A stretch of DNA of 64,000 nucleotides. Source: Dehalococcoidia bacterium (GTDB lineage: Bacteria; Chloroflexota; Dehalococcoidia; SM23-28-2; RBG-16-64-32). Positions within the stretch are counted from its first letter, which is position 1, and every line of letters begins with the position of its first letter. The position numbers and the translations under genes were made by a program. The stretch covers positions 64,001 through 128,000 of the forward strand of contig CAXXTF010000002.1 in the NCBI GenBank assembly GCA_963665775.2. The letters run 5' to 3'. Below the pieces are notes generated by a model. The model saw only the letters and a program-made list of their open reading frames with translations, did not search any database and was not told where the DNA came from. Below, piece by piece: positions 6,195-61,094 of this stretch.

Positions 6195-6245
6195 AGGGAC
6201 CGACGGAAGGCGAGGCTGAGGGCGAGGGTCGAAGGAGATACGTCG

Positions 6246-9071: not shown

Positions 9072-9159
9072 GTCGCAGGTACTGGCCGTCTCGTGGGAGA
9101 GGTAGCCAGGCCCGTTATCCGAGAGGAGGGCCGTGCGGACCTGCAAAGGCACCTCGGCC

Positions 9160-9199
9160 GGACGCGATCTCGCCTGGCGAGCGTGAAGCGGCCGCACAT
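9160..9199 (-). pseudogene. possible 5' remnant of an SRAP (SOS response-associated peptidase) gene
   Basis: GAGGT immediately followed by ATG-CGRFTL, the SRAP N-terminal motif. The similarity is lost after about 10 codons. Confidence 0.4.
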
Positions 9200-9394
9200 A
9201 CCTCAAGCGTAGCAGCCAAGTCCCTTCCCGTTAGAGCAGCTGCTGTGGGTTGTCGGGGCCATACTCGACGGAGGACTTCGCTCCCAGAACGCACAAGGCG
9301 CCTCGGGTCAAAGTCTGCACGCGGCCCAGGCCAGGGCCAGCGGAGAGGTGACACTAAGTGTCGATAGGGTAGCCCGCAGCCAGCAATTCACGCT

Positions 9395-9874
9395 CTATTC
9401 CGGGGAGTCAGTCTTGGCACCGCGCCTCTTCGACTCGTGCTGAGTCTTCTCGTCTGGCTCGGTTTGCAGCGCGTCGACAGCCATTCTTAGCGATCCCGGA
9501 AGAGCGGCACGGCCTATCCTCTCTGCAGCACGCTTGATCTCCTCATCGTGCTTCCGGCCATACTGCACCGCTCGTTTAGCGGCCCTTTCCACGTTGGGCT
9601 TCGCTTGGTGTGCCAGGCGGTTGACCTCGGGCCTGATGCCGTTCGCTGCTTGCTTCACACCTTCCGCCGCCTTGCGAGCCATGCGTTGCGCCTCCGGTCG
9701 GTGCTTCTCAGCGGCGGCTCTAGCGACAGCCGCCGTCCTCTTCGCGTGCTCGGCCAGCTCGCGAACCCTCGGTTCGCTAGCCTCTGCTGCCTCCTTAGTT
9801 CGGTCCATCAGTACTTTCCAGAGTGACCCCTCTTTCGGCTTCTTGCTTTTGCGCACTGATGACTCCTCACCCAT
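9395..9874 (-). CDS. Ala/Lys/Arg-rich helical protein (apolipoprotein/LEA-like)
   Basis: Amphipathic helices punctuated by prolines at about 11/22-residue spacing. Confidence 0.6.
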   Translation of the reverse strand: MGEESSVRKSKKPKEGSLWKVLMDRTKEAAEASEPRVRELAEHAKRTAAVARAAAEKHRPEAQRMARKAAEGVKQAANGIRPEVNRLAHQAKPNVERAAKRAVQYGRKHDEEIKRAAERIGRAALPGSLRMAVDALQTEPDEKTQHESKRRGAKTDSPE

Positions 9875-24203: not shown

Positions 24204-24299
24204 CAGGCGCGGGGAGGATATTGTCAGCCCCGAACACGGGGAGTATACTACTCTCCGGCCCCACCTAATATTGTATACGCGATTAAGTAGGTGAACGCT

Positions 24300-25430
24300 A
24301 TGAAGATATCCTGTCTCAAGGAAAACCTCGCCAAGGGACTCTCCATCGTCGGGCGGGCGGTGGCCGTCCGGAGCACGCTCCCCCAGGCCTCGCACGTCCT
24401 CCTGGCCAGCGATCAGGGGCGCCTCAAGCTGGTCGCCACCAACCTGGAGATCGCTACTACCTGCTGGATCGGCGCTCAGGTGGAAGAGGAGGGAGCGATT
24501 ACCGTCCCGGCCCGGCTCCTGACCGACCTTGTAGCGTCCCTCCCCGACGATCGCATAGATATGGATGTGGCAGGGCGCCCTCGTCAGCTCCACATCACCT
24601 GCGCCCGCAATGAGGCCACCATCGCTGGCATGGACGCCGAGGACTTCCCCCCGGTGCCTTCCGTGGAAGACGGCCCTTCCCTGAAGCTCGACCCGAAGGC
24701 GTTACAGCGGGCTATCGCCCAGGTGGAGTTCGCCGCCGCCGCCGCTGACACCCGCCCCGTCCTCACCGGCATCCACATCCTGGCGGAGGACGGCCAGCTC
24801 ACCCTGGCCGCCGCCGACGGCTTCCGACTCGCCGTCCACAAGCTGCCCCTGGAGCAGGATGCGCCGGAGCGGGTTGAGGTGATTATCCCGGCCCGGGCCC
24901 TGAGGGAACTGGAGCGCCTCATCGCCGACGAGGAGTCCCTGGAGGCAGCGTTCAACGCCACTCGCTCCCAGGTCATCTTCCGGCTGAAGACGGTGGAGAT
25001 AGTGGCCACTCTAGTCCAGGGCACCTTTCCCAACTACAGTCAGCTCATACCCCAGTCCTGGGCCTCGCGGGCGGTCATCGACATGCGCCAGTTCCTGCAA
25101 GAAACCCGCATCGCCGCTATCTTCGCCCGAGACGGTGCCGGCATCGTCCGGCTGCAGGTGGAACCCGGGCAAGAGGCGGCACCCGGCAAGATGATCATCT
25201 CCGCTCGCGCCGAGGAGATCGGCGAACACCACGGCGAGATCGACGTGGCGGTGGAGGGTGAGCCGTCCAAGGTCGCCTTTAACAGCAAGTACCTACAGGA
25301 CGTGCTCCAGGTACTGGACTGCAGCCAGGTAGCGCTGGAGACCTCCAACCCGTCCAGCCCCGGCGTCATCCACCCGATCGGCTCCGATGACTACGTGCAC
25401 GTGGTCATGCCGATGTTTGTTCAATGGTGA
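24300..25430 (+). CDS. dnaN: DNA polymerase III beta sliding clamp
   Basis: ATNLEIA, RPVLTG, AADGFRLA, GTFPNY, FNSKYLQD, VVMPM; not adjacent to dnaA. Confidence 0.96.
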   Translation: MKISCLKENLAKGLSIVGRAVAVRSTLPQASHVLLASDQGRLKLVATNLEIATTCWIGAQVEEEGAITVPARLLTDLVASLPDDRIDMDVAGRPRQLHITCARNEATIAGMDAEDFPPVPSVEDGPSLKLDPKALQRAIAQVEFAAAAADTRPVLTGIHILAEDGQLTLAAADGFRLAVHKLPLEQDAPERVEVIIPARALRELERLIADEESLEAAFNATRSQVIFRLKTVEIVATLVQGTFPNYSQLIPQSWASRAVIDMRQFLQETRIAAIFARDGAGIVRLQVEPGQEAAPGKMIISARAEEIGEHHGEIDVAVEGEPSKVAFNSKYLQDVLQVLDCSQVALETSNPSSPGVIHPIGSDDYVHVVMPMFVQW

Positions 25431-26958
25431 CTAAATCCTGAGGCTGAGTAGTCATCATCAGCGGAACAACACCCCGAATCCGTGCTTCGGTGTTCGACGC
25501 CGCAATCTGGGCGTCCGTAGCCCGCAGCAGTAGGTCGAGCTTGTCGACATCGGCTGATTCGAGCCAGGAACGTAGCCGCCTGCTGTACTCGGGAGCGCAG
25601 ACTCGCAGACCATCGAGGTCGATTCTTGACCTGGCTTGGGGCTCCAACCTTTGACGCTCTGCTTCAAGGGTTGTTCTCTGGACGCTTAGCTCGCGCCGCT
25701 GCTCCTCCAGAAGGTCGCCCGGCAAGCCGCCATCGGTGAAGAGCCGAACTAGTCGCCGCTGACGCGCTTCGACTTCCCGAAGTGCGTCGTTGACTCGCTC
25801 TAGTTGGCTTGTTTCAACATCATCGCCCGTTAGCCGGATGACTTCCGAGATGATGCGGTCCGGATCAGCAAGTAGGTCCGCAATGGCACGCATGACGGCG
25901 CCTTCGAGGGTTGCAGTCGCCACGTACTTCGAGTCGCATCGCTTGTCCCACTGACTCCCGTAGCTATGCCGGCATCGGTAGTAGGAGTAACGGCCCTTCA
26001 TCAGGACTTGCCCGACCATAGGCGCTCCGCAAGCGAGACAGCGAAGGCGGCCACGGAGCGGATAGGCTCGCGAAGGCTTCGACCGGCTATGGCGGTATGG
26101 GTCTTCCAGAATGGTCTTCGCCCGTAGGTAGAGCTCAGGACTGACGATTGCAGGTGTAGCGCCCGCAATCTCAATCCATTCGTTCTGCTCGCGCTCTGAA
26201 ACACGCACCTTCCACCGGCCAGAGCGGCCATCGCGATACTTCTCTGACTTCGTCCGACGGTAGATAGACCGGCCAGTGTAGGTCTCGTTGAGAAGCATGC
26301 GGCGAATGGTCAGCGGATACCACGGGCCGCCGGCAAACGCAGGAACACCTCTTGCGTTGAGGCTAGCGGCTATACCGTGGCAGCTTCCGCCTTCTGCGAA
26401 CTTCTCGAAGGCTTCTCGTACAATGTCGGCCTCTCTCGGCTCGACGCGCCGAGTGCCACTCGCCTGGTCATACCTGTAGCCATAGATGCCTCGACCTGTC
26501 GCCTGGGGGAGCTTCCCGCTGCGGGCTCGCTGCGCCTTACCGCGCTGAGTTCGCTCGACGATTTTCTCGCGCTCGACTTCGGCTACGAAGGCTCGTGCGG
26601 CGAGTATGAACCGGCCAACAGCAGTGTCCTCGAACTTCTCTGTCACGAAGTCGAGCTTCACGCCGGTCTGATTTGCCTCATCGAACAGAACGCCGATTTG
26701 GTTCTGGTTGCGGGAGAGCCGATCAATCGCGAACGCAAGGATAACGTCTGCATCGGCGTCTCGAAGGAGCTTCCGAACCTGCTCCATACCCGGACGATCG
26801 AGCGTGAAGCCGCTCGCTGCATCGCGTACGGTGCCAACAATTGCCCAGCCCTGAGCCTCTGCGTACTCAGCGCAGGCCCTCTCCTGGGTCTCTAAGGAAG
26901 TGCCATCACGCTCCTGAGCATCGGTCGAAACCCGACAGTAGATCACGCATCTAGTCAT
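25405..26958 (-). CDS. large serine recombinase (integrase)
   Basis: YCRVST catalytic motif, DRLSR, GIYGYRY, Zn-ribbon CLACG...YYRC, coiled coil. The last 8 codons and stop lie inside dnaN. Confidence 0.95.
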   Translation of the reverse strand: MTRCVIYCRVSTDAQERDGTSLETQERACAEYAEAQGWAIVGTVRDAASGFTLDRPGMEQVRKLLRDADADVILAFAIDRLSRNQNQIGVLFDEANQTGVKLDFVTEKFEDTAVGRFILAARAFVAEVEREKIVERTQRGKAQRARSGKLPQATGRGIYGYRYDQASGTRRVEPREADIVREAFEKFAEGGSCHGIAASLNARGVPAFAGGPWYPLTIRRMLLNETYTGRSIYRRTKSEKYRDGRSGRWKVRVSEREQNEWIEIAGATPAIVSPELYLRAKTILEDPYRHSRSKPSRAYPLRGRLRCLACGAPMVGQVLMKGRYSYYRCRHSYGSQWDKRCDSKYVATATLEGAVMRAIADLLADPDRIISEVIRLTGDDVETSQLERVNDALREVEARQRRLVRLFTDGGLPGDLLEEQRRELSVQRTTLEAERQRLEPQARSRIDLDGLRVCAPEYSRRLRSWLESADVDKLDLLLRATDAQIAASNTEARIRGVVPLMMTTQPQDLVTIEQTSA

Positions 26959-27149
26959 TTGCTCTTCTCCGGCTTCCGCCCTGGGGGCTGAATCTCGTCA
27001 TCGTTCGTGCCGTACGCCTTATCGATGGCCGCTCGGATGAGCTTGGCGATGGGCACGCGCTGCTCGAACGACAGGCGTCTAAGGGTCTCGTACTCGTCCT
27101 CGCTGATTATGAGCATCATTCTCTGCATAACACTATTATTATATGGCAA
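26955..27149 (-). CDS. ribbon-helix-helix (CopG-like) protein
   Basis: RMMLIISEDEYETLRRLSFEQRVPIAKLIRAAID; ATGA overlap with the integrase. Confidence 0.8.
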   Translation of the reverse strand: MPYNNSVMQRMMLIISEDEYETLRRLSFEQRVPIAKLIRAAIDKAYGTNDDEIQPPGRKPEKSK

Positions 27150-27162
27150 TTAGAAGGACCCG

Positions 27163-28158
27163 TCAAAGGGCCTGCCCTTCCATGGCACTATCTACACGGA
27201 TCTGGGACGCAATGCACTCATGGCTCCTGAGCAGGCGGTCCACTGTTGCGACACGCCGGCAAGCCAAGACCAACTTCACCGAGTGGTCATCATAGCCGTG
27301 CTTGCGCAGCCAGACCACAAACGCAGCCGTTAGCTGACTCAAGGTCAGCCCGGGCCACCCAGCACTCTCGCACATACACTTGATACGGTTCCGGATTGCC
27401 CCCTTGGAGAGATGCTCGCCTTCCTTGCGACCGGGAAGCACGTAATTATCGCGCTGCAAACCGGACGTCAGGGCCAAGCTGAGCAGGGGCCTTGCACCCA
27501 TTGGGACAATCAGGCAGGTGGTGCGGCGTCCTCTCCGATGCACAGTGACTTCACAGAAGGTCGAGGCGCTGTCATCCCGCCAGGTAACATCCGACCATCG
27601 CAGTTCGCAAATTTCATCCAACTCAAGGCCGCTGAAGCAGGCCAGCCCTGCGATGGTGCCGTCAAGCGGCGAGCGAGAAACTGCAAGTCGGAGTATGGCT
27701 TCGAGAGCGTCAGGGTCTGGCGTTGGACTGCGAGGACGAATGCGTTCTCTCGATCCCGGTAGCGACAGGCCGCTATCGTGCCAACCGCTACCCTTCCTCT
27801 TGGGCAACGAGGATTGAAAGGCGGTGATCCAACCTCGCCCCTCACCGTCACCCAGCTGGAGCATGGCGAGCCTTTGTAAGGCCCTGGATCGTGTGAGCAC
27901 CGTAGAGTGTCCGCTGGAGCGGCCTGCAAGTTCGATTAGCTCGGCGGCGCTGTCGGGTCGGTCGAACAAGTCTGCAAGCGCCATCCCGAGATGTGTCTTG
28001 GCGTCCTTTGCCAAGGAACGGAGCTGCGAGACCTCGGCCGCAATCGTCGAAGCCGCCTTGCCACTCTCCAGTCGCGCTTCTTTGAACCGGCCAATCAGCG
28101 CCTTCGTCTCAGGAGAAAGTGAGAAGCTTCCGAATAGGTCTAGCGCTCTCTGGGTCAT
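27163..28158 (-). CDS. tyrosine-recombinase-fold protein lacking catalytic residues
   Basis: SGLELDEICELRWSDV (box I Arg replaced by Glu); no HxxR or C-terminal H/Y is discernible. Confidence 0.7.
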   Translation of the reverse strand: MTQRALDLFGSFSLSPETKALIGRFKEARLESGKAASTIAAEVSQLRSLAKDAKTHLGMALADLFDRPDSAAELIELAGRSSGHSTVLTRSRALQRLAMLQLGDGEGRGWITAFQSSLPKRKGSGWHDSGLSLPGSRERIRPRSPTPDPDALEAILRLAVSRSPLDGTIAGLACFSGLELDEICELRWSDVTWRDDSASTFCEVTVHRRGRRTTCLIVPMGARPLLSLALTSGLQRDNYVLPGRKEGEHLSKGAIRNRIKCMCESAGWPGLTLSQLTAAFVVWLRKHGYDDHSVKLVLACRRVATVDRLLRSHECIASQIRVDSAMEGQAL

Positions 28159-29465
28159 GGCCCCGTGCCTACCGCGTCAAGTACTGGAGAATCGGTCTCC
28201 ACCGGGAGCGCTTGTCCGGGACGGGATGGTAGTCTTGCCACAGACTGCCTTAGGCGAGTGAGTGAAGGCTGGACGTAGTGGTCGTCCATCCGCCGTGTTG
28301 AGGTCCAGTTGCCGGCGGTGGCTACTGTCGCTCTCGGCACCACCGCAGTGCTGATGGTGGCAAAGGCCCGACGGAAGGCATGTGACGTATAAACGGGGAC
28401 GCCGACGCTGATACACGCCTGCTTCAATTCACTAGTCCAAGCCTGATAGGTCAGCGGCTGGCCGAGGTCGTTTCGCCAGAAGCGCCCGAGTACGCCGAAC
28501 CCGATACGGTCAGGTAACCCAGACGCTTTGGCCCAGGTGTTGAACTGCTCAACGTAGCGGGCCAGCGGCTCAGTGAGATCGTCAGGTGCGGCGAGTTCAT
28601 AGGGCTCGCGCTTGCTCTTGGCCCTGAGGAGACAACGGATGCGTCCATCCCTCAATCTGTGCGCGCTCGCGCCATCGAGCGTGAGCAGGCCGCCGATACG
28701 CAAGCCCCGGCGCGTCATCAGGCTGAAGATGATCTTGTTGCGGGAGCCGCGCCAGTCAGGCTTGCCGGCGAGTTCGTCCTGAATTGCCGCGATTTCTTCG
28801 AGGGAAGGCGCCGGGCCACCCCGTCCGCGTGTCGCCCCGACAGGCAGGCGATAACCCGTGCCCACGGGTTCGGCGACCGAGCGAAGGGCGCGTACCAGCG
28901 CATCTCCAGCATCTGCTATACCTTCGCGTCTGAGCTCTGGTTCCATAAGCTCGGTGAACGAGCGGAGGACGCTGCGGCGTTGAGCCACTAGCCAGGCCGA
29001 GACCTCACGGCTCCTATCAGCGGTGGTTGCTGTTGCGAGGAGACGACCAAGAAGCTGTTCGTCTCTCAGGAGTTCGAGGATGCCCACGCTGCGGCCTGCT
29101 AGGTTGCCTGCAAGGCCCAGCATGTTGCGGAGGACCCAGCGATACTGCCGTCTAGTCCTCCCCGTCCATCGGGCTGCAATTCGTTTGTCGTAGAGGGTCA
29201 CAAGGGCCTCTGCCTCCCGATGTGACTTTGGCGGCAGCGGTCGCCTTCGCCTGACAATCGCTGTGTCCTCGCCTAAGCCAGGCAGACCACGCTGTACAGG
29301 GCGACTGTCGATCTTCGGAGTCTGGGTTTCCTGCCGGACTGTCGATCTTTGCTTAGTAGTGGTAGTAGTTGATGCCGGAGTACCCAGGGCATTCGAGATT
29401 GGAGAGGCTGGGCGGTTCATGAGAACAGGCGATTGCTCTCGGGCAAGGAGTGCAAGGCTCGTCAT
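28155..29465 (-). CDS. tyrosine recombinase
   Basis: RGLRIGGL (R), RAKSK (K), SHAFRRAFAT (HxxR), GNW...DDHY (W, Y). Confidence 0.85.
   Translation of the reverse strand: MTSLALLAREQSPVLMNRPASPISNALGTPASTTTTTKQRSTVRQETQTPKIDSRPVQRGLPGLGEDTAIVRRRRPLPPKSHREAEALVTLYDKRIAARWTGRTRRQYRWVLRNMLGLAGNLAGRSVGILELLRDEQLLGRLLATATTADRSREVSAWLVAQRRSVLRSFTELMEPELRREGIADAGDALVRALRSVAEPVGTGYRLPVGATRGRGGPAPSLEEIAAIQDELAGKPDWRGSRNKIIFSLMTRRGLRIGGLLTLDGASAHRLRDGRIRCLLRAKSKREPYELAAPDDLTEPLARYVEQFNTWAKASGLPDRIGFGVLGRFWRNDLGQPLTYQAWTSELKQACISVGVPVYTSHAFRRAFATISTAVVPRATVATAGNWTSTRRMDDHYVQPSLTRLRQSVARLPSRPGQALPVETDSPVLDAVGTGP
29303..29373. repeat. about 70-bp element containing two GACTGTCGATCTT boxes; second copy at 50496-50562
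   Basis: Direct alignment of the two copies shows high identity, with 1-bp and 3-bp indels. Confidence 0.85.
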
Positions 29466-29656
29466 TGTGACGACTCCCTGTCACCGTTTCGCTCAGGAAG
29501 ACCGACCTCGGTGAGTATCCGGCGCCACAGCTCTGACCACGCCGAGCTGGTGGTGGCAGTCGTTGTCCACTCAGCGTGGATCTCCAGCTCGGCGGCGGAG
29601 TGGCGCGAGGGCTGCTTCTGCGATGGCGTGAGCTCCGGTTTCGGTTTGCGAGTCAT
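29462..29656 (-). CDS. small hypothetical protein (WxxLWRRIL motif)
   Basis: ATG start; ATGA overlap with the tyrosine recombinase. Confidence 0.55.
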   Translation of the reverse strand: MTRKPKPELTPSQKQPSRHSAAELEIHAEWTTTATTSSAWSELWRRILTEVGLPERNGDRESSQ

Positions 29657-29744
29657 CCTGCCTTGAGGCTAGAACTCGCTTTACGGCACTCGTCCGGCGC
29701 CGAACGTTCTTCAAACGCATTTCAAACGGTTTTCGTCCGCACAC

Positions 29745-31457
29745 TCAGGGCAGGTCCAGGGTGTAGACGCCTCGGGCTCCGGCTTCGACGATTAGCCTTT
29801 TCCAGAGGGGCGACTTGCCGAACATGTCACTCATACTGCGCGAAAGGCTCTCTGTCCGGTCTCTGATCACGCCCCAACTCATGGGTGGGTCGCGTCTCTC
29901 CCATGCCTCATTCAGCAATCGCATGACCGGCCGTTGCACTGGGGTCAATGCATAAGACTTGCCTCGGAAGACGATCGACTCGTAATTTTCTCCGTGAACG
30001 AGCCCCTTTCGTCTGCCGCGATCGATCTCGAGTTCCTTCTCCGCACCGGCGCAGAGGCTAACCAAGCAAGTGGCAGGCAACAGCCCCCTGGCCAGCTCAT
30101 CGGCGTGGCCTGCAATTTGGGAAGCCATCACGCTGATTACCCCTTTTGCGTGACGCTGATGCATGCGGACAAGCTCCAACCCGTCTTCTGCCACCGTCTT
30201 ACTGGATGGATCGAGACATTCGTCGAGCTGTGGATACTCATTGATCATCTGGTCTTCGGTCAGGTCGTACATTCGCAGCGCATGGCGAAAGTACGAGGTC
30301 GCCATAGTCCGTGGTTCGCCATCCAGCAATGGTTGGGTGAAGATGTCGACTTCGTAAGCTTCCGCCGGGTCGTATTCTTCGATGCCAGCCTCCATCGTCC
30401 CAAACCTGCGGTCTATGCACTGCGAGCATGTCCCGCAGTGGGGCTGCATCCTTGCCCGGCCTCTTGGGTGAGCGCATGAATGCGTAAGCGAGACGAGGTC
30501 AAGCGCAGCGAGGGGCTTCAGCAAGTCGAATGTCTCGGGTCTCGTCTGGTTCCACAGCGGATTCCAGACGCTAACGTCCGCTTCTGCCACCAGACCGGCG
30601 AGTCGCCGAAAGAGGAGGAGAAACTTGGGATGCGTTGACCGGCTCGCGCGCGCCCCGATGGCCTGGTCTGTGAAAGGCAGGTTCACGCTGACGATCCCAT
30701 TGTCGGCCAGGCGAATATCATCAATGCCCAACGCAATCCCGACCGCTGTTCCCAGGCTCGCATAGAGCATTGACCGGGTCCGTTGAGTATTCTCCTTTGC
30801 ATCGGCGCCCTTGAGGCTGACGACAGCGTCAGCAGTGCGAAAACCCTGCCGGGCGAAGCGCCGTCTGACTTCCGTCAGCAAATCGCGGCGGTGGCCAATA
30901 GCAGCTTTGGATGCGCGATGACTTACTAGGAACGGATTTCTGTCCTGCTGGTGAGCTGACAGCGCAGCGCACAAACTGTCAGCGCCGCCAGAGAACAGTA
31001 CGACGCATCCAGGCTGTCCGTGAAGCCCCGCGTCTGTCTCCACGAGTCTCATCTGAACAGTGCCGGATTCCACTAGCTTCTCGAAGCGGAAGTCCCAGCC
31101 GTCTTCCGTCAAGAAGTTGAGCGTCTCCCGCAGAGCTAGGCTAACGTCGCTGGCATTCCAGAAGTCTGGGTCGCTGACCGGGATAGCCATCAGCATCTGT
31201 CGGCGCCAGTCTTTTAGGTACACGTCGGCTTCGCCGCCCCTTGACGCCGACTCGTCAGCGAGGAAGCAGTAACTGGCGATGCGAACGAGATCGCGCATCC
31301 TCGGTGAGAGGTTGCCGAGGACGGGGCCGGGTAGCTCAAGCCGGAAGTCCGTTACTGTTTTCCCTTCGTTGTGGGCATCAAGGGAATGGCGATGTGGGAC
31401 CCTCGACCACTCCGACGGAATGCTCAGACCCTCACAGGCAAAGACGTGCCCCTTCAC
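29745..31457 (-). CDS. QueC-like (QatC/Cap9-like) PP-loop ATPase with Zn site and C-terminal winged-helix-like domain
   Basis: VLFSGGADS, ENTQRTRS, DNGIVSVNLP, SRSTHPKF, SC...HCGTCSQCIDRR, plus an extra C-terminal domain of about 90 aa. Confidence 0.85.
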   Translation of the reverse strand: MKGHVFACEGLSIPSEWSRVPHRHSLDAHNEGKTVTDFRLELPGPVLGNLSPRMRDLVRIASYCFLADESASRGGEADVYLKDWRRQMLMAIPVSDPDFWNASDVSLALRETLNFLTEDGWDFRFEKLVESGTVQMRLVETDAGLHGQPGCVVLFSGGADSLCAALSAHQQDRNPFLVSHRASKAAIGHRRDLLTEVRRRFARQGFRTADAVVSLKGADAKENTQRTRSMLYASLGTAVGIALGIDDIRLADNGIVSVNLPFTDQAIGARASRSTHPKFLLLFRRLAGLVAEADVSVWNPLWNQTRPETFDLLKPLAALDLVSLTHSCAHPRGRARMQPHCGTCSQCIDRRFGTMEAGIEEYDPAEAYEVDIFTQPLLDGEPRTMATSYFRHALRMYDLTEDQMINEYPQLDECLDPSSKTVAEDGLELVRMHQRHAKGVISVMASQIAGHADELARGLLPATCLVSLCAGAEKELEIDRGRRKGLVHGENYESIVFRGKSYALTPVQRPVMRLLNEAWERRDPPMSWGVIRDRTESLSRSMSDMFGKSPLWKRLIVEAGARGVYTLDLP

Positions 31458-31460
31458 GCC

Positions 31461-32234
31461 TCAGCCTCTTTTCAACTCGCTGCGCATCTTGCGAAGGGCG
31501 TACGCTACGAACGCCCGCGTGTCCCCCTCGGTAATTGCGCCTTGTGACTCCCACTGGTGCTTCGAGTACCAGCCCCCCGCGAAGTCGCGAAGAATGAAGG
31601 CTGTTTCTCGTGCGTGCCGGTCTATGGCTTCAATGGCTTCGCGGCTATCTCCGACGGTGCGAAGGCCGGGAGAAGCGCCGACGAGGTTCGGAATCTCCTT
31701 ATCGACGTAAGAGCAAAGCGTTCGTGCTAGAAAGTCGCCGAAGAACCGCTGCGCCAACTGGGCGAAGTGTTCACGTGTGCTGTATGTGCGAAAGGCCGCC
31801 CGGAGGTCGCTCAGGGCGGTTCCAAACAGGCTGGGTCCCTGCTGCCCCACCGTCTCCGTCAACGCTCGCCGAAGAGCCAGTGAGGCCATCTCGGCCGTTG
31901 CGCCGGACTTCGGGTCTTGCATCGCCTGCGTTCGCACACGGTCCGTTACAGCCGCGATGAAGCCCAGCGTGGGCGTGTCGGCTTCAAGAGTGAGGCCCAG
32001 CGCGTCCAATTCGGTGAGGAAGCCGTCGCTACGGGCAGCCCAGGTGACACGGGTAAGTAGCCAGAAGCAGTAGTTGAGGGCGGGGTCGTCTCGAAGCGAG
32101 ATCAGGTGTCGTTCGGCAGCCTCAGTGGTGGCCCTTGCAATAGCGGCGCCGTCTGCAGGCGTCTCACCAAGCAGTGCGACGACCGCGTTCCACTTCAACC
32201 GATGAGGGAGGCGTCCTAAGCGAATATGACCCAT
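31461..32234 (-). CDS. helical protein with N-terminal MGHxRLG, putative QatB-like partner of the QueC-like enzyme
   Basis: Starts MGHIRLGRLP, is all-helical, and ends 3 bp before the QueC-like gene. Confidence 0.65.
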   Translation of the reverse strand: MGHIRLGRLPHRLKWNAVVALLGETPADGAAIARATTEAAERHLISLRDDPALNYCFWLLTRVTWAARSDGFLTELDALGLTLEADTPTLGFIAAVTDRVRTQAMQDPKSGATAEMASLALRRALTETVGQQGPSLFGTALSDLRAAFRTYSTREHFAQLAQRFFGDFLARTLCSYVDKEIPNLVGASPGLRTVGDSREAIEAIDRHARETAFILRDFAGGWYSKHQWESQGAITEGDTRAFVAYALRKMRSELKRG

Positions 32235-32280
32235 GAGTCGTCCTTCCGGCGGGTAGGCCGGGGTTTTAGTCGATCGCCTC

Positions 32281-32495
32281 GACCTGCCCCATGAACGCTA
32301 CCACACGCTATGTTAGTGCAGCCATTGCCATAGTCTCGATGTATGGCGGGGTGGAGCCTGGCCATGGCAGGATCGCTTGCGGTGCTAGCGGCCGGCAACC
32401 AAGAACGCTATACGGGCGCACCGCACTGTAGTTTCATCGCCACGGCTCGCATAGCACCTGTGCTTCTGACCTGCACCCATAAACGCTACCAGACG
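32281..32495 (-). mobile_element. degenerate right-end fragments of the IS3 element (two stacked ends)
   Basis: 32281-32466 aligns with 56850-57036. A second end motif, tgacctgcacccataaacgctacca, starts at 32467. Confidence 0.8.
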
Positions 32496-37563: not shown

Positions 37564-37638
37564 ACGGAGCTGACCCCACCTCAAATCTCTCGGGTTTTTC
37601 TACCCCCTCATCTGTCCCATTATCGCTGACGGTCTACA
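37564..37638 (-). mobile_element. isolated 75-bp copy of the left end of the IS at 42755-44280
   Basis: Identical to 44206-44280, in direct orientation. Confidence 0.9.
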
Positions 37639-42244: not shown

Positions 42245-42694
42245 ATGGGACATGCATCGGGTGATGGCGCTGCTTCTGACCACCCTGACATGTCATGGCT
42301 GGCGGGTAGCAGACCCCAGGGAGCCTCACAGAGCCCCCAACCACATCTCGAAGACAGTACCACCTACTATCCACTTTGGCCCGCCGAAACGGACCGGGAG
42401 GCGCTGGCTGCCCTCTACAACGCAACCGACGGTGAGAACTGGGAGTACAGTGTTAACTGGCTGAGCGACGCGCCCCTCGGCCAATGGTTCAGCGTCATCA
42501 CAAACGACGACGGGCGCGTTACAGGGCTGGAACTCTGGGACAACGACTTGAGCGGGGAGATACCGGCGGAGCTGGGCAGCCTCTCCAACCAGATAGCTCT
42601 GAACCTCTACGACAACGAGTTGAGCGGGTGCGTGCCAAGCAGCCTGGAAGACCAGTTGACCCCCGATGGCCTTGGCGACCTGCCCTTCTGCTGA
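42245..42694 (+). CDS. short leucine-rich-repeat protein (probably a fragment)
   Basis: DREALAALYNATDGENW, GRVTGLELWDNDLSGEIPAELGSL. Confidence 0.7.
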   Translation: MGHASGDGAASDHPDMSWLAGSRPQGASQSPQPHLEDSTTYYPLWPAETDREALAALYNATDGENWEYSVNWLSDAPLGQWFSVITNDDGRVTGLELWDNDLSGEIPAELGSLSNQIALNLYDNELSGCVPSSLEDQLTPDGLGDLPFC

Positions 42695-42754: not shown

Positions 42755-44280
42755 TGTTGGCAACCAGCAAAATTGGGACACATTGAGACCCGAGAGATCA
42801 GGGGTCGGATAGAGGTCTCGTAAGCTCCCTGATGGCCCTATTGTGCTGTCTTCGCCGTTCGATTGTTTGGGCCTGCACCTCCTTTCTTCTTAGTAGGATC
42901 TCCTGCCGCCTTCCCTTGAGGACATCCGAGGGCGTCACGTTGCCGAGGGCCTTGTGATAGCGTCGGTAGTTGTAGTAGCTGACGAAGGCCACGATGGCCG
43001 CCTCCAAGTCTGAAGGCATCTCATACGGCAGTTGGTTCACATCACGCTTGAGGGTCTGGTGGTAGCGCTCCAGCTTGCCGTTGGTCTGAGGATGGAAGGG
43101 CGTTGCCAGGATGTGCTTGATGCCCACCATACCCAGGTAGTCTCTGAAGGCTCTGGATACATAGCCGGGGCCGTTGTCGCTCAGCAGCCTGGTCCGGTCT
43201 GTTATCGGGATCTGGTCCATGCCGGTCCTGTCCACGGCCTCTTGGACCACCTCTATGAAGGAGTCGGATGTCATATCCCTCTGAAGCCTGTGGCCCAGGC
43301 CTGTCCTGAGCTTGTCGAAGGGATGAATCGTGAGTAGTCGTCCATGACGGTGACCATGTAGTAGTAGCCCCAGCCCACCACCCTGAAGTAGGAGGCATCG
43401 GTGGCCCACATCTGGTGGAGACCGGTGGTCTTCCGATGGTACTCCTTACCCGCAGCCAGCTGCATCTCAGCCCTCTTCACCAGCCCCTCCCTGGGCAGGA
43501 TGCGGTAGACAGTAGACTCTGATACGGAGAAGCCCTGGTTGTCGGTGGTCCATGCGGCCAACTGCCGGCAACTCAACTCCGGCATCTCCCTGGCTGCCGA
43601 CAGAACGTAGTTGATCTCCTGGGAAGTCAGCTTGTTCCATGGGGGATTGCCACCTCCCACGTCGTCCTCAAGTCCTTGCTGCTCCTTCCGCCTCAGCCAC
43701 CGGTAGTAGGTGATCCTGGGGACTCCTAGCCCACCCAGGATCCTGCGTTTGGGGAGACCGGAGGAAGCCACCTTGTCCAGCACCTCCGCCTTCTCTGCGC
43801 CACTCATCCGTTGATACTGTCGGCGCCCTGAGGCATTGGTATGGACGTTTTTTTGAGACGATAGACCTCAAGGGACAGATCGGCGACCAACTGCTTTAGC
43901 TCTCCGTTCTCCCGCTTGAGCTGATGGACCTCCTCCCTGGTGGCATCTCGCACGCTGTCGGGGGTGAGCCTCTCCTTGCCCGCTTCCATGAACTCCTTGG
44001 TCCACGAGTAGTAAGAGTGACGCTTGATGCCCTCCCGCCTGCACGATACGAATCTTCTCTTCCGGGGTGTACTTGCGCCTAGTAGCAGCCTTAACCGTTC
44101 CGATGAATGACCTGGCCGCCTCTGTGCGTTCATCAGCGGCCGCTGTTTTACCTGTTTCTGTCTGGGACATCTTTGGCTCCTCTATCTGAAGTGCTCTACC
44201 TCATCACGGAGCTGACCCCACCTCAAATCTCTCGGGTTTTTCTACCCCCTCATCTGTCCCATTATCGCTGACGGTCTACA
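42755..44280 (-). mobile_element. degenerate IS3/IS481-like element with multiple frameshifts
   Basis: TGT...ACA ends with imperfect IRs (...TGGGACA). Fragments RRKYTPEEKIRIV, WATDASY, SDNG, HPQTNGKLER. Confidence 0.85.
43299..43321. repeat. 23-bp REP-like insertion (CCTTCGACAAGCTCAGGACAGGC on the minus strand) frameshifting the transposase
   Basis: Removal restores DDYSRFILGHRLQ. Confidence 0.75.
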
Positions 44281-45492: not shown

Positions 45493-46378
45493 TCACAGGG
45501 CAACCTCCCACCGAAAAGTTTGTAGTACAGTCCCCGTTGGCCCACCATCGTGCATACTAGATAGAACGGAACCATGTAGGGTCACCTTTACGGCCGCCCC
45601 TCCCGGTATCAAGGTGTCATCTGGCACAGGTGCAGTGTATCTGAGCAGGGCGTCACCGGGCACGACGACGATCTCCTTGATAAAGGACTGGATGAAGGCC
45701 CTGCGCTCGGTCAGTTCGCTCTCCTTCAGGAAGTCCTTCATGTCCTTGGCGTAGGCCGCGATGGTGTTCACGTCGTCGAGGACCTTCCGGCGCTGGGCCA
45801 GGACCGCCCTCGCCTGCTCAGCGAAATACTCCAGACGCTCCTGCCGCTCTCGGTGCTCCCTGATGCGGTCTGAGGCGTCGGTCATAACGGCGTCGGACGT
45901 CTCTATGAAGTGCCAGATGCGGCCCAGCTTCCGCTTCACTTCCTCAAGCTCATCCTCGATGGTCTCCAGCCTCTTGCGCTGCTCTCGGGTCACGCCGTCC
46001 ATCTCCTCGGCCACCACCTTGACCAGATCTCGGATGTTGCCCTCAGTGAGGATGTTGGAGCGAATCCTGGCGACCACCAGCTCCTCGAAGCGGCGGGCGT
46101 TGAGCGTGGGAGTCTTGCAGGCGTCCCTGCCGAGCTTGATGGTCGACTGGCAGACGTAGTAGGAGTACTTGCCGCTCTGGGCGAACCGGCCGATGAGCGG
46201 CGTGTTGCACGTCTTGCACTTGGCGAGGCCGCTGAGCAGGTAGGAGCTTCCGACTCTTCGGGGGTGGCTGAACTTGGGTGCGCGGGAGCTCAGATGCTTC
46301 CCGACACGCTGCAACTGCGCCCTGGTGATGATGGCGGGAAACGCCTTCTCCACCCGCACAGGGTCGGCGTTGTCCTTG
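45493..46378 (-). pseudogene. C-terminal half of a large serine recombinase truncated by IS3
   Basis: DPVRVEKAFPAII, YLLSGLAKCKTC, YYVC; paralogous to 52611-54190. Confidence 0.88.
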
Positions 46379-47651
46379 TGACCTTGCCCCCGAAAACGAG
46401 TCCAGGCCCAATGTTAGTAATCAGGGGTTCTGGACCAGAGAAAGGGGGCAGAAGGATTGGGCAGGCAGCATCACACGGCAGAGGAGATCATCAACAAGTT
46501 GAGGGAGGCGGAGGTCGGGCTGGCTAAGGGCCTGGCTGTGCCCGAGGTCTGCAGGAAGCTGGGCGTGGCAGAGCAGACCTACTACCGCTGGCGGAAGGAG
46601 TAGGGCGGCCTGAGGAGGGAGCAGGCCAAGCGGCTGCGGGAGCTGGAGCAGGAGAACCTGCGGCTGAAGAAGCTGGTAGCCGGTCTCTCCCTGGACAACG
46701 CCATCCTGAAGGAGGCGGCGCAGGGAAACTTCTGAGCCCGGCCAAGAGACGACAGGCGGTGGCCTGGGTGCGGAATGCGTTGGGCCACGCGGTCATCTCG
46801 GAGCGCCGGGCCTGCCAGGCCCTGGGGCAGGAGCGATCGACGCAGCGGCGGTGGGGTTCTCCTCCCGACGATGAAGGGAGGCTGCTGAGGCGGATGGTGG
46901 AGCTAGCGACCGAGTACGGGCGCTACGGTTACCGACGGGTGACCGCCCTGCTGCGAGAGGAGGGTTTTCGGGTGAACCACAAGCGGGTAGAGCGGCTCTG
47001 GCGGCGGGAAGGGCTGAAGGTGCCGGCGAAGCAGCCGAAGCGGAGGCGGCTCTGGTTGACAGACGGCTCCTGCGTTAGGCTCAGGCCGACTGAGCCCAAC
47101 CACGTCTGGAGCTACGACTTCGTGTTTACCCGCACCAGCGACGGCCGTCCCCTGCGGCTCTTGACGGTGCTGGACGAGTTCACAAGGGAGTGCCTGGCTA
47201 TCCAGGTGGCGAGGCAGATCACCAGTGATGACGTGCTGGCAGAGCTGGCCCAGCTCTTGGTCGAGCGCGGGACGCCTCGCTACCTGCGCTCGGACAACGG
47301 GCCAGAGTTCACGGCACGTGCGCTCCGGACCTGGCTAGAGCGGGTAGGCGTGCAGACTCTGTATATCGAGCCCGGGAGCCCCTGGGAGAACGGCTACATC
47401 GAGTCGTTCAATGGGAAGCTACGTGATGAACTATTGAATGGGGAGGTGTTCGACACGGTGCTGGAAGCACAGGTCCTCTGCGAGCGGTGGCGACGGAACT
47501 ACAACGAGGTGCGCCCGCATAGCGCTCTCGGCTACCGGCCGCCAGCACCGCAAGCGATCGTGCCATGGCCGGGCTCCACCGCGCCATCCCTGGAGACTAC
47601 GGCGATGGCCACACTAACATAGCCTGTGGTAGCGTTTAGGGGGGCAGGTCA
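46379..47651 (+). mobile_element. IS3-family element, copy 1 (orfA with internal TAG at 46601)
   Basis: TGACC...GGTCA ends, orfA/orfB with GGGAAAC slippery site (46723-46729), and the DDE orfB (WSYDF, SDNGPEF, ENGYIESFN). Confidence 0.95.
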
Positions 47652-50225: not shown

Positions 50226-50495
50226 CCTATCCTCCGACAGTTCGAACGGGCTTCTTCTCGTAGTTGATCCACGTCCAGCCCGTGCTCGGCGACCGGCGAC
50301 TTCCATATGTCATTCCGCCGGCACATGGTGCGCGGATCGGGCTTGCCGACCGCGAAGAAGGCGCCCGGAAGCGCCGGCCTCAGCGTGGCATCCGTGGCAA
50401 CGTACGTCTCCTCACCGTCTGACCGTCGCGGACCATGCGCAATAGGAGCTTTCGGACCGTGCCACCCTTCATGGCAGCTCCCCACTGGACAAGCT

Positions 50496-50562
50496 GACTG
50501 TCGATCTTCGGAGTCTGACTCCCTGCGAGACCGTCGATCTTTGCTTAGTAGTTGTAGTTGAT
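50496..50562. repeat. second copy of the element at 29303-29373
   Basis: gactgtcgatcttcggagtctg...gaccgtcgatctttgcttagtagttgtagttgat. Confidence 0.85.
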
Positions 50563-52061: not shown

Positions 52062-52610
52062 TCCTGGATAGACGCCAACGCACAGATCTTCGACATGGCT
52101 CTCCAGGCAGGCGCCGTTCGTTCATCAGATACGAAGTCTGCTGGCCGGATCGAGCTCGTGACTAATGGCCGTTTGGGGAGAACGAGCGCCCCGCCTGCAC
52201 GCTTTGAGTCCGAGCAATGTCGTGGACTGAGGTTGCTATGAGCTCAAGGTTAGCGTCAACTCAAATGGTACGCTAGCGATTTGGCTCTGGTTGAACAGTG
52301 ATCCCGATGTTCGTCCAGTGGTGAGTAAAGGTATACCGTTTAGGCTTCAAGTGCAGTGCACTGGCACGACCTAGTAGCACGCCTAAGAGCCTGAGACTGC
52401 CCAAGGCTAGCGCCTTCTGAGCTTTAAGGGGTGGCGTTTAGGCACCCCAGTCTCCCGCACTACGCGACCTGTAGCCGACGGCTGTATCCTGAGTCTTGTA
52501 CAAGACATATGTCGGAGTCAGCGAGGATTTCAAGCCTAGACATTTCCGTACATAGCAGGTGTATAAAGGACCCGAGGGCAGGGTAAAGCTTTCTGACCAA
52601 AAAGCTTGGT

Positions 52611-60935: not shown

Positions 60936-61094
60936 CGTCACTATTGCCCCCGCTGCCTACTGCGGAGGCAGGGCTGGTAAGATATAACCCTATGTGTTCA
61001 AGCAGATCAGAGGTGATATGGCCCAAAGGTATAGCTCCTGCTCAAGATGCTGGGAATCCTAGTCGAGCAGAGGCGCAAGCCAGCTTCGGCGCTC

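Follow-up and report, generated by a model that had tools for sequence, protein, structure and literature searches.

Why should a single operon carry two tandem tyrosine recombinases, one of them without its catalytic nucleophile, together with a large serine integrase? We addressed this question in 64,000 nucleotides of Dehalococcoidia DNA (contig CAXXTF010000002.1), hereafter the window, in which the operon comprises the following genes:

29462–29656, minus strand: 64-aa ORF from the ORF list, translationally coupled to YR1
28155–29465, minus strand: YR1, an Xer-like simple tyrosine recombinase of 436 aa (PF00589)
27163–28158, minus strand: YR2, a tyrosine-recombinase fold without the nucleophile, 331 aa (PF00589)
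26955–27149, minus strand: RHH-like small protein of 64 aa (sub-threshold RHH_3 match)
25405–26958, minus strand: large serine integrase (LSR) of 517 aa (Pfam domains Resolvase, Recombinase and Zn_ribbon_recom)

The ORF list matches exactly the five co-directional minus-strand genes and three ATGA overlaps described in the first-pass annotation. The coordinates give 4-nt overlaps at 29462–29465, 28155–28158 and 26955–26958, which read ATGA because the downstream genes begin with ATG; a 13-nt gap lies between YR2 and the RHH gene. YR1 and YR2 score 31.7 and 28.4 bits against the Pfam model PF00589 (cut-off 27.1), and the small protein at 26955–27149 matches RHH_3 with E=4e-4 and 20.7 bits, below the Pfam cut-off of 21.6. 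The RHH protein is 82% identical to its counterpart in locus L001; in other loci its slot holds a Cys-rich protein of 77 aa or one of the HTH_17/MerR type. The 64-aa ORF at 29462–29656 matches no Pfam or NCBIfam family. It has relatives in locus L003 (37.5% identity over 40 aa) and on contig C6 of genome G462 (46%), and is kept in other genomes upstream of an 80-nt site described below; a second copy adjoins the 871-kb site of genome G461.

The two tyrosine recombinases differ sharply in their active sites. The R, HxxR, W and Y first noticed in YR1 belong to a complete catalytic hexad, R256, K283, H362, R365, W387 and Y397, which is invariant in all eight homologues. YR2 has E at R-I, S..T for H..R, R/C for H/W and L for Y, and is short of four of the six catalytic residues. 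These calls rest on a family alignment and on a profile alignment to solved XerA, which agree with the earlier description of a full ORF with E for the catalytic R and without HxxR and Y. The loss extends across the family. We found 27 close relatives, and the 20 that were aligned include none with the tyrosine and one with R-I; 32 columns are invariant in this close family, whose members fall to ~35% identity. A profile search returned 141 representatives at E≤1e-10 that have the substitution pattern in common. In a wide alignment of 90 full-length proteins (295–420 aa, out of 172), the nucleophile column holds Y in one and L in 71, and the HxxR histidine is kept in six. R-I is kept in 41 of the 90 and the HxxR arginine in 43, so that YR2 may conceivably retain some residual active-site role, for example in activating YR1 in trans. 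Between the window and L001, dN/dS is 0.18 for YR2 (dS 0.78) and 0.28 for YR1. The YR2 AlphaFold model (pLDDT 81) contains both Xer/Cre domains, and the ORF is full-length in every locus but L001, a MAG sequence with a short frame break near codons 28–33. The alignment and dN/dS proposed at the outset as checks on the inactive paralogue take it beyond local decay, with homologues that likewise lack the catalytic residues; judged by its sequence, YR2 is non-catalytic, conserved and under selection.

The surroundings of the operon place it at one end of an integrated island, delimited by these features:

24291–25430, plus strand: dnaN (beta sliding clamp), the integration target (ORF and homology)
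25409–25430: dnaN att core, the last ~22 nt of dnaN, a repeated core sequence
29745–32234, minus strand: QatC-like protein (570 aa) and 257-aa partner, the first cargo genes
52302–52325, plus strand: right-hand boundary of the LSR-integrated island, a displaced dnaN 3' end (…CCGATGTTCGTCCAGTGGTGA)

The 3' end of the LSR gene overlaps the convergent 3' end of dnaN by 26 nt, and the dnaN 3' core is present in three copies in this genome (the dnaN end, 52304 and C2:1026492). The displaced copy is followed by a second LSR gene, which is split (52611–54190). Directly upstream of the module and co-directional with it lie the QatC-like gene (29745–31457) and the 257-aa gene (31461–32234). The former product is called QatC by PADLOC and scores 187 bits against NCBIfam NF041925, below the cut-off of 280. 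Locus L055 carries the same pair, 42% and 52% identical, upstream of its YR pair. A defence island of ~27 kb, integrated into the dnaN 3' end, occupies window positions ~25405–52325, and the module forms its left edge, next to dnaN. The LSR would have inserted the island into the last dnaN codons, bringing a replacement dnaN 3' end and leaving the displaced copy at 52304. The dnaN gene is 59–67% identical to those adjoining the same module in L001–L003. Homologues of dnaN were found in 54 of 61 relatives; small dnaN-3' relics lie downstream of dnaN in 3 of 29 relatives, and an LSR in none of the 29. The catalytic-domain motif YxRVSTDAQ is invariant in four of four LSRs. LSR islands at gene 3' ends, with tandem stacking, are known, for instance the SCC elements with Ccr and the fdxN element with XisF. 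The present island resembles them in its Resolvase, Recombinase and zinc-ribbon architecture, its replacement 3' end, the displaced target copies at its ends and a second LSR element in tandem. XisF and CcrB are the best NCBIfam matches, with scores far under the equivalog cut-offs (107 against 375 and 101 against 900). It differs from them in its target, dnaN, and in the YR1/YR2 pair that accompanies the LSR.

How tightly is this pair bound to the integrase? In 13 of 14 loci YR1 is the gene immediately upstream of YR2, and this gene order, together with the 4-nt overlap in the window, makes the pairing an obligate one. Among the ten loci with at least 1 kb of downstream sequence, seven have an LSR downstream of the pair. 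The order YR1, YR2, small gene, LSR is kept with gene overlaps in these seven, the most divergent of which have YRs ~31–36% identical and LSRs ~26% identical. The co-occurrence that was initially seen once is thus found elsewhere, in very divergent loci included. The three recombinases do not behave as one co-evolving unit, as the first-pass annotation had them. The pair occurs without an LSR in L005, in L052 and beside a P4-type tyrosine integrase in the same genome. Between the window and L001, YR1, YR2 and RHH are 73–82% identical, against 47% for the LSR and 59% for dnaN, whereas L001 and L003 share 90% identity in the LSR and 48–50% in the YRs; identity falls near the LSR start. By these comparisons, YR1-YR2-RHH and the LSR diverged independently of each other. 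The pair is patchy in its distribution, occurring in 4 of 61 relatives including G000, which is also the one positive genome among 401 sampled Chloroflexota. A full-text literature search found no published description of a YR1/YR2/LSR module.

The adjacency in seven of ten loci, very divergent members included, could mean that YR2, with or without YR1, controls the LSR as a directionality factor, an att-binding architectural protein or a dominant-negative brake, and so times excision from dnaN. Directionality factors (RDFs) of serine integrases have been recruited from unrelated proteins, which would suit such a role. An inactivated YR domain also serves as a sequence-specific DNA-targeting subunit in TnsF of Tn6022, according to the excerpted account in PMC10293859. 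We nevertheless consider control of the LSR unlikely. The pair occurs in the LSR-free contexts named above and has diverged independently of the LSR, and the usual RDF or regulator slot is already filled by a separate small DNA-binding gene; the constant, active YR1, the conserved 80-nt site and the fusion of YR2 to RuvC are left unexplained. TnsF itself, in the same excerpts, combines zinc fingers at the N terminus with tandem CB domains and an incomplete catalytic domain, and works with TniQ and the Tn7 transposase at comM. The Tsy transposon encodes a non-catalytic YR-derived protein in an operon that also holds an active YR and an HTH protein (PMC10293859). These are like YR2 in that a non-catalysing, YR-derived protein is retained on a mobile element. 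Compared with TnsF as described there, YR2 has the full two-domain fold, a YR partner and no Tn7 genes nearby.

A complex prediction of YR1 with YR2, the heterodimer model first suggested as a check, scored 0.54, the best of three controls reaching 0.10. Of 80 solved complexes, 58 reach the pass mark, as do 2 of 110 mismatched pairs, and passing scores of at most 0.60 come from seven of the 80 solved complexes and both passing mismatches. Contact agreement between runs was at least 54%, and partner pLDDT at least 77. The model exceeds its controls and offers weak support for a heteromer; the score may mirror mere likeness because solved YR assemblies exist.

The substrate of such a heteromer is suggested by a repeated sequence of ~80 nt, present twice in the window:

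29287–29366, minus strand: site S1, ~80 nt, inside the 5' part of YR1, defined by paired 13-mers
50480–50558, minus strand: site S2, a second copy in the same orientation as S1

S1 contains two direct 13-mers (AAGATCGACAGTC) that are 34 nt apart and in different reading frames. Five matches were counted against 1.37 expected, and none of 100 shuffles gave at least five. The paired 13-mers recur at the 5' edge of YR1 in L002 and L003; the L001 contig begins inside the site. No 13-mer match was found in the distant YR subfamily (L004, L005, L010, L055 and L056), and the YR1 5' region of L010 has no second copy in its genome. Among 61 relatives the site is present in two, G000 and G438, exactly those with a full-length gene of this YR clade. 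Since it co-occurs with the whole element, it would be usable by any shared element function. The two regions of G461 that were covered hold 13 copies, which occur in both orientations and share a sharp left boundary. At 871 kb in G461 and on contig C6 of G462, the left flank is sm64-like but the right flank differs. Site copies inside islands therefore have recombined flanks, a shuffling that homologous recombination across the 80-nt repeat could also produce. S1 and S2 are intact direct repeats 21.19 kb apart that bracket the defence cargo, so deletion has been too infrequent to remove it. Public-run contigs showed no joint at the site among the matches listed, and in X4 and X7 contigs bridge it. 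Most YR sites have an inverted-repeat core; none is obvious here, the 13-mers being direct repeats, and as a hairpin the consensus fold of the site reaches −2.9 kcal/mol, with compensatory change in none of eight pairs. We regard the 80-nt site as a likely candidate substrate of YR1/YR2.

This arrangement recalls integrons (IntI, attI, attC), in that a primary site lies at the recombinase gene's own 5' edge and further copies punctuate a cargo array, here often of defence genes. It differs in that the site does not fold into an attC-type hairpin, the cargo blocks span many kb, the sites occur in both orientations and the recombinase is a two-protein pair; the match to the NCBIfam XerA/integron-integrase model is weak (14–17 bits against 220).

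Four of the G461 copies lie ~205–230 nt from a dnaN-core relic, in the relative orientation of the intact module, and have no recombinase genes. That these reduced elements retain the site beside the att core, and that the pair is found with integrases of both kinds, would also suit a relaxase-like DNA-processing module with the 80-nt site as origin of transfer. YR1 would nick the site to mobilise the excised island, YR2 would be a relaxosome accessory protein, and recombinase-less derivatives would retain the site for mobilisation in trans. Relaxases resembling tyrosine recombinases are known: MobK requires its catalytic tyrosine (PMC8152469, in excerpt), and excerpts of the SE paper mention a Clostridium case (PMC9345347). 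Our credence in an origin of transfer is nonetheless low. The scanned cargo genes of the window and G461 include no conjugation, coupling-protein or T4SS genes, YR1 has the complete recombinase hexad and a two-domain Xer-like layout, the site lacks an oriT-typical hairpin or inverted repeat, and the YR2-RuvC fusion suggests four-way junctions rather than nicked oriT DNA.

Tandem tyrosine recombinase operons on mobile elements are also found in RIT elements, in Tn554 (TnpA/TnpB) and in SEs (IntA/IntB). Excerpted descriptions give RIT three YRs with distinctive added domains (PMC8138268) and SEs one-strand, figure-eight products with both IntA and IntB of the RHRY type (PMC9345347). None of these is known to include a YR without the nucleophile or to adjoin a large serine integrase, and no NCBIfam or Pfam model of the RIT, Tn554 or SE recombinase families matched the module proteins. 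The YR pair could be an independent small two-recombinase transposon of this style, its LSR linkage reflecting insertion preference; the higher identity of YR1-YR2-RHH than of the LSR and dnaN between the window and L001, the differing contexts of the pair and its patchy distribution would fit. We think this quite improbable, as the gene order and overlaps persist in seven loci down to ~31–36% YR identity, the pair has no terminal inverted repeats or target duplications around it and the site on one side only, and known multi-YR transposons keep their catalytic residues throughout, as the excerpts show for IntA and IntB (PMC9345347). That YR2 is a decaying, functionless duplicate of YR1, as the four missing residues might suggest, is scarcely credible and ruled out by the conservation data: the ORF that is full-length in all loci but L001, the 32 invariant columns, the dN/dS of 0.18 and the 141 representatives with the same substitutions.

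A known system close to our preferred reading, a heteromeric site-specific recombinase, is XerC/XerD. At plasmid cer/psi and CTX-phage attachment sites, these two partners recombine DNA with strand exchange by one of them. Each binds its own half-site, in some reactions cleavage by one partner alone gives a Holliday junction completed by other functions, and the sites carry a long accessory sequence beside the core. Both XerC and XerD have all catalytic residues and are encoded by host housekeeping genes. YR1 and YR2 resemble them as a pair of paralogous simple tyrosine recombinases; by contrast, the YR2 family lacks the nucleophile (Y in 1 of 90) and the pair rides on mobile islands, and matches to the NCBIfam models for XerC (19 bits, cut-off 335) and XerD (14.5 bits, cut-off 330) stay below threshold.

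A connection with four-way junctions comes from P0098, P0106 and P0140 (538–543 aa, 45–48% mutual identity), in which a YR2-type domain is fused to the Holliday-junction resolvase RuvC. The YR part aligns to the YR2 profile with an hhalign probability of 98.9, against 11 for the YR1 profile. The RuvC portion can be aligned with the E. coli enzyme (1hjr) across the GxDP and E motifs. Such fusions are rare, with three full-length examples and two shorter relatives (375–379 aa, 62–65% query coverage).

YR2 may be an architectural or regulatory subunit, as the first-pass annotation inferred, and the evidence favours, more narrowly, a partner that does not cleave within a recombinase that forms Holliday junctions. 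YR1 and YR2 would form a separate, portable, Xer-like two-protein module, in which YR1 performs the chemistry and YR2 provides DNA binding and synapsis. They would bind each other and act on the ~80-bp site at the YR1 5' edge and on its further copies inside islands. Because only one of the two can cleave, a YR1(2)YR2(2) synapse would exchange a single strand pair and stop at a Holliday junction. Completion of the reaction would then fall to replication or a junction resolvase, in some lineages the RuvC domain borne by YR2. Recombination between sites would excise, invert or swap cargo between the fixed integration module and the remainder of the island, and also between elements stacked in tandem at dnaN. 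We hold with about even confidence that, in these islands, the LSR provides the anchor and a half-active Xer-like heteromer reshuffles the cargo through Holliday junctions formed at the sites.

The recombinase module beside dnaN consists of five minus-strand ORFs with three 4-nt start/stop overlaps, and the ORF listing finds all of these exactly where the first-pass annotation had placed them.

Genes of the module at the dnaN-proximal end
29462-29656, minus strand: sm64, a 64-aa ORF (ORF listing)
28155-29465, minus strand: YR1, putatively active tyrosine recombinase, 436 aa (PF00589)
27163-28158, minus strand: YR2, its nucleophile-less paralogue, 331 aa (PF00589)
26955-27149, minus strand: RHH, ribbon-helix-helix-like protein, 64 aa (ORF listing)
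25405-26958, minus strand: LSR, large serine recombinase, 517 aa (Resolvase, Recombinase and zinc ribbon)

Both tyrosine recombinases score barely over the PF00589 cut-off of 27.1 bits (YR1 31.7 bits, YR2 28.4 bits). Residues R256, K283, H362, R365, W387 and Y397 of YR1 are invariant in 8 of 8 homologues, and with its full R-K-H-R-(H/W)-Y hexad and its CB and CAT two-domain layout YR1 belongs to PF00589. LSR is by its domains a large serine recombinase, combining an N-terminal catalytic resolvase domain with the Ser nucleophile (PF00239, 114.7 bits), a recombinase domain (PF07508, 79.4 bits) and a zinc ribbon (PF13408, 40.4 bits). Its YxRVSTDAQ motif is invariant in 4/4 sequences, and its closest NCBIfam neighbours, XisF and CcrB, are both far under cut-off. 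The LSR gene reaches at its 3' end 26 nt into the convergent dnaN (24291-25430).

YR2 is a conserved non-enzyme. A word-indexed search recovered 27 relatives; none of the 20 aligned has the nucleophile tyrosine, TVDRLL replacing the Xer motif T..RY, and the first catalytic arginine (R-I) is kept by one alone, the most distant. In the register fixed by a profile alignment to solved XerA, E stands in place of R-I, S..T in place of H..R and LGR in place of LGH; the nucleophile Y is replaced by L. A MAFFT pairing of YR1 DDHY with YR2 DDHS was dropped and this canonical register preferred, because the alignment to XerA supports it. An exhaustive profile search returned 1026 proteins at E<=0.001, of which 141 reach E<=1e-10. 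The residue census was made on 90 proteins of 295-420 aa out of 172, shorter and longer ones being dropped: the nucleophile column holds L in 71/90 and Y in 1/90, and R-I is kept in 41/90, the HxxR arginine in 43/90 and the HxxR histidine in 6/90. Between the window and L001, one of the other loci with YR2 relatives, dN/dS for YR2 is 0.18 at a dS of 0.78, compared with 0.28 for YR1 and 0.22 for LSR (the latter from the pair L001-L003). The single tyrosine in the census and this dN/dS dispose of local decay, which the first-pass annotation had named as the outcome that would undo its reading. The AlphaFold model of YR2 (pLDDT 81) contains both core-binding and catalytic-fold domains, and Foldseek against the PDB ranks XerA, IntI, Cre and XerH at the top with probability 1.00. 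YR2 is thus predicted to keep the tyrosine recombinase fold with its CB and CAT domains, and lacks the catalytic tyrosine and the RHR triad.

Full-length YR2 occurs at 14 loci: the window, a second copy in the same genome (L010), five species genomes and seven metagenomes. YR1 lies immediately 5' of YR2 in 13 of them, the exception being L054, with just 214 nt upstream. Where at least 1 kb follows YR2, LSR lies downstream in 7 of 10 loci (window, L001, L002, L003, L051, L055 and L056; internally deleted in L002) and does not follow in the remaining three (L005, L010 and L052). Gene order is kept in L055 and L056 though the tyrosine recombinases are 31-39% and LSR 25-27% identical to those of the window. 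The small gene between YR2 and LSR differs by locus: it encodes RHH in the window and L001, and the slot holds a 77-aa Cys-rich protein in L002, L003, L051 and L052 and an HTH_17/MerR protein in L055 and L056. The second pair, L010, has no LSR; a P4-type tyrosine integrase and genes for tRNA-Glu/Gln are close by. The tyrosine recombinase family is rare and patchy, found in 1/401 sampled Chloroflexota genomes (the window's own) and in 4/61 relatives including that genome; related loci come from Dehalococcoidia and Thermomicrobiales MAGs.

Identity between the window and L001 is 73% for YR1, 78% for YR2 and 82% for RHH, against 47% for LSR and 59% for dnaN; L001 and L003 are 90% identical in LSR, 76% in dnaN and 48-50% in YR1/YR2. 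In a sliding comparison of the window with L001, nucleotide identity is mostly 75-87% across YR1, YR2 and RHH, with a dip to 68-70% by the YR2-RHH junction and values of 57-75% inside the LSR gene. Since the identities of the YR pair and of LSR disagree, the architecture is assembled from two modules, recurrent and without a single co-diverging unit. The three-recombinase operon of the first-pass annotation is accordingly retained as a recurrent architecture, the pair co-occurring with a serine integrase elsewhere, and given up as one co-diverging unit. What that annotation observed was borne out; its interpretation of the dead paralogue as a subunit in a new element class is supported in part. 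In L005, from a Dehalococcoidia genome, the YR pair is found between a 306-aa ORF with the ComEC N-terminal domain DUF4131 alone (5707-6627) and a 161-aa HsdM N-terminal fragment (9108-9593), with no LSR within 8 kb. This suggests insertion into or beside broken genes.

Three proteins of 538-543 aa from different sources (P0098, P0106 and P0140; 45-48% mutual identity) came up in the profile search with a YR2-type domain and, after it, RuvC. The YR2-type domain matches the YR2 profile with an hhalign probability of 98.9, versus 11 for the YR1 profile, and has a VDRLL-type motif where the tyrosine would stand. An alignment of the RuvC portion with E. coli RuvC (1hjr) extends across the GxDP and E motifs, and one fusion is named in its source 'Holliday junction resolvasome RuvABC endonuclease subunit/integrase'. 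RuvC on a non-cleaving partner is what would be expected if the active partner leaves a Holliday junction that needs another resolution. Fusion loci gave no viral locus and no match in the 401 sampled Chloroflexota genomes, an empty answer that proves nothing.

A conserved DNA site of about 80 nt accompanies the module and recurs once in the window.

Copies of the conserved site
29287-29366, inside the 5' part of YR1: S1, 75-80 nt, recurring as S2
50480-50558, same orientation as S1: S2 (repeat comparison)

Within the site, AAGATCGACAGTC occurs twice as a direct repeat, at a spacing of 33-34 nt. With up to two mismatches allowed, the window contains 5 matches to this 13-mer where 1.37 are expected, a count attained by 0 of 100 shuffles. 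The two 13-mers in S1 occupy different YR1 reading frames, which argues for a function at the DNA level. Paired 13-mers at equal spacing are present at the YR1 5' edge in L003 and L002, and the L001 contig starts inside the site. A different contig of the L001 genome bears a second copy, with an sm64-like ORF and YR1 codons 9-57; unrelated DNA begins right after the second 13-mer. Among the 61 relatives, a 20-nt site pattern is found in two, the window's genome and G438, exactly those with a full-length gene of this YR clade. The pattern has 0 matches on viral contigs, the distant YR subfamily, with L004, L005, L010, L055 and L056, yielded no equivalent repeated site, and blastn gave none for the second YR pair of the window's genome. 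A folded-DNA site was considered and rejected: RNAalifold on 15 copies gives -2.9 kcal/mol, no compensatory pairs and no conserved hairpin.

The genome of L003 (G461) matches the site at 20 places (E<=10), 13 of them clear copies in the two regions examined, 833-881 kb, by the YR pair, and 1264-1286 kb. These copies occur in both orientations and have in common a sharp left boundary, ...CTACTAAGC. In this genome, too, the site connects an sm64-like ORF, with a portion of the YR1-upstream region, to a different right flank. Four copies lie 205-230 nt from a dnaN 3' core, oriented as in the intact module; they look as if they were the intact module minus the 4-kb recombinase block. The position of these copies beside the dnaN core suggests that recombinase-less derivatives keep both cis elements. 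Six copies are followed by a conserved tail of ~230 nt, and four of the tails end in a dnaN core relic. Two copies (C1:845210-846357 and 861848-862840) have another ~1 kb in common, within which lies a 217-aa ORF without known family.

Public sequencing runs were compared as Logan contigs over a 20-kb stretch containing S1, outside which lie S2 and the right end. No joint at S1 is found among the joints listed. Contigs span S1 in runs X4 (27977-30625) and X7 (26917-32325) and end inside it in X2 (29328-29357) and X6 (29292-29321), with mean word depths of 70 and 34.7 for the neighbouring contigs in X2. The ends are at most a hint of population heterogeneity, or else of other strains. In all four runs many contigs return by 43-52 nt at 42590, 20-23 letters of other sequence intervening, and depth is very high. 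The ORF there (42245-42694) has a weak leucine-rich-repeat match, and 42540-42590 looks like a variable tandem-repeat (LRR-like) region common to many other organisms.

G+C falls from ~0.66-0.68 before 25 kb to 0.52-0.61 past it, and the ~38 kb beyond the module is a defence island, encoding a QatC-like protein, McrBC, a methyltransferase, GmrSD, HigBA and a pPIWI-associated nuclease together with several IS copies and two further serine recombinase genes. The last 21 nt of dnaN are repeated at 52304, with differences at three synonymous positions only. Short copies of the dnaN C-terminus, displaced to 0.5-1 kb downstream, are found at 3/29 dnaN loci of relatives; 0/29 have an LSR within 1.5 kb downstream. 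In L001, L002 and L003, the YR1-YR2-small gene-LSR module adjoins the dnaN 3' end. On the strength of the displaced core, the relatives' loci and these three modules, we read 25405 to ~52325 as an island that LSR probably integrated at the 3' end of dnaN and behind which another element is stacked. A tRNA was rejected as the target, the window having no tRNA genes. A second integrase gene follows the displaced dnaN copy, with the GmrSD genes next to it.

Second LSR gene behind the displaced dnaN copy
52611-54190, minus strand: second LSR gene, split
53678-54190: its first ORF, Resolvase domain
52611-53681: its second ORF, Recombinase and zinc ribbon

The stretch 52302-54190 resembles a second tandem element at this target, one whose integrase carries a frameshift. 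Another copy of the dnaN 3' core lies at C2:1026492, on the opposite strand. This third core and a homologous element arm occupy C2:1026475-1032801, ~0.9 Mb away, and C2:1031425-1032801 holds the genes found after dnaN in several relatives. These positions point to a large inversion or rearrangement that includes the att region, or else to an assembly join.

The cargo shows several further features. The QatC-like protein (570 aa) scores 187 bits with the QatC model, under the cut-off of 280, and E=3.7e-51 with PADLOC QatC; QatA, QatB and QatD have no match among the neighbours scanned. It is preceded by a 257-aa protein without known family (29745-32234 for both genes), and the same gene pair precedes the YR pair in L055 (1-2597; 42% and 52% identity), so that the two genes possibly form a distinct QueC-like defence module. 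An IS of ~1274 bp with an rve-type transposase is present at 46378-47651 and 56849-58121, with a 186-nt end fragment as a remnant at 32281-32466, just upstream of the 257-aa gene. This IS has >20 near-identical copies on both contigs of the genome, one adjoining the second YR pair. Perfect 75-nt direct repeats 6.6 kb apart (37564-37638 and 44206-44280) enclose an IS1595-type transposase, a P63C-domain gene, a DNA methyltransferase and IS3-type fragments, and are possibly the borders of a composite insertion; a perfect 28-nt inverted repeat pair lies at 38172/41259. At 45493-46359, abutting an IS copy, is an N-terminally truncated serine recombinase, its zinc ribbon the sole detectable domain, with 96% DNA identity to C2:958729-959570. 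Possibly it is what remains of a further integrase module, in which case the 27-kb island would be composite. At 59652-60935, a MarR-type HTH is fused to a predicted pPIWI-associating nuclease domain, and an 864-aa ORF adjoins it on the opposite strand (61095-63689); 59652-63689 is possibly a prokaryotic Argonaute system.

XerC and XerD are housekeeping partners, both catalytic, whereas this family occurs in 4/61 relatives and 1/401 phylum genomes and scores 19 bits against 335 (TIGR02224) and 14.5 against 329.6 (TIGR02225). RIT elements have three consecutive catalytic tyrosine recombinase genes (RitA, RitB and RitC); here there are two, the second non-catalytic, and the third recombinase is a serine enzyme. 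Integrons combine an IntI-type integrase with attC sites, imperfect hairpins; the scores here are 14.4 and 17.3 bits against 220 (NF040815), and the 15 site copies have no conserved secondary structure. A precedent for an inactivated tyrosine recombinase domain retained as a DNA-targeting subunit is TnsF of Tn6022 (PMC10293859). The accessible text of a classification of tyrosine recombinases holds no wording on inactive or catalysis-lacking members (PMC8138268), and the open full-text literature, with supplements and subscription journals outside this scope, yielded no nucleophile-less recombinase paired with a tyrosine recombinase and an LSR.

In tyrosine recombinases all four protomers of the synapse are potentially active. 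We tentatively propose a two-tier platform for building defence islands, one possible reading among several, in which LSR would be the anchor at dnaN and a half-active heterotetramer of YR1, which cleaves, and YR2, which cannot, would swap cargo, with a RuvC-bearing partner in some lineages. YR1 and YR2 would occupy the ~80-bp site as a heteromer, YR1 would exchange one strand pair, and the junction would then be resolved via replication, host enzymes or fused RuvC; we infer binding, cleavage and the junction intermediate, the sequence facts themselves being observed. The predicted YR1-YR2 complex scores 0.54 versus 0.10 for the best control, with runs sharing 54% or more of their contacts and a partner pLDDT of 77 or higher, at a pass mark reached by 58/80 solved pairs and 2/110 mismatched ones and in a range, <=0.60, where scores are oftener wrong than right. 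The prediction lends weak support to the heteromer, and solved tyrosine recombinase assemblies may explain the pass. Such Holliday-junction-only exchanges would capture, excise and swap multi-gene cargo blocks among stacked elements and recombinase-less satellites. Direct site copies would lead to excision of cargo and inverted copies to its inversion; copies on stacked elements would swap integration modules and cargo, a pattern like that in the identity matrices, while LSR would integrate the island at dnaN independently.

Other readings fare less well. It is unlikely that YR2 is a directionality or regulatory factor of LSR, which follows it in seven of the ten loci with enough downstream sequence and is missing after it in three. 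Distinctly unlikely is a tyrosine-recombinase-type relaxase with the site as oriT: the accessible account of MobK describes a relaxase of this kind, but there are no transfer genes among the cargo genes scanned. An independent transposon with two tyrosine recombinases is very unlikely. Tn554- and SE-type elements (Tn554 compared by description) have two catalytic recombinases, small accessory genes and core-type inverted repeats at their ends, and the accessible text on SE elements gives RHRY as kept in both IntA and IntB (PMC9345347); YR2 lacks RHRY and no terminal inverted repeats surround the YR pair. That YR2 is a decaying duplicate is hardly credible, given the residue census and dN/dS.

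The module is a variant of known site-specific recombination modules, with a new mechanism that is plausible and testable. Its parts are two recombinases, a ~80-bp site and an LSR whose core has been mapped, all compact and defined and therefore directly testable; if the half-active heterotetramer is real, YR1/YR2, the site and LSR might serve as orthogonal genome-engineering tools. The system would be integron-like by function, without kinship to IntI/attC, and in lineages where the dead partner carries RuvC would use a hybrid mechanism not described before, tyrosine strand exchange with nucleolytic junction resolution. To our knowledge, the only other instances of the route of exchanging one strand pair and then resolving are special cases among Xer and integron reactions. 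A widespread family with an obligate, permanently inactive partner that is now and then fused to RuvC would mean that nature has fixed this route. For streamlined Dehalococcoidia genomes, it would provide a concrete and testable mechanism for the cargo exchange of defence islands, with the fixed integration module sitting at dnaN and the internal sites as the places where cargo is swapped.
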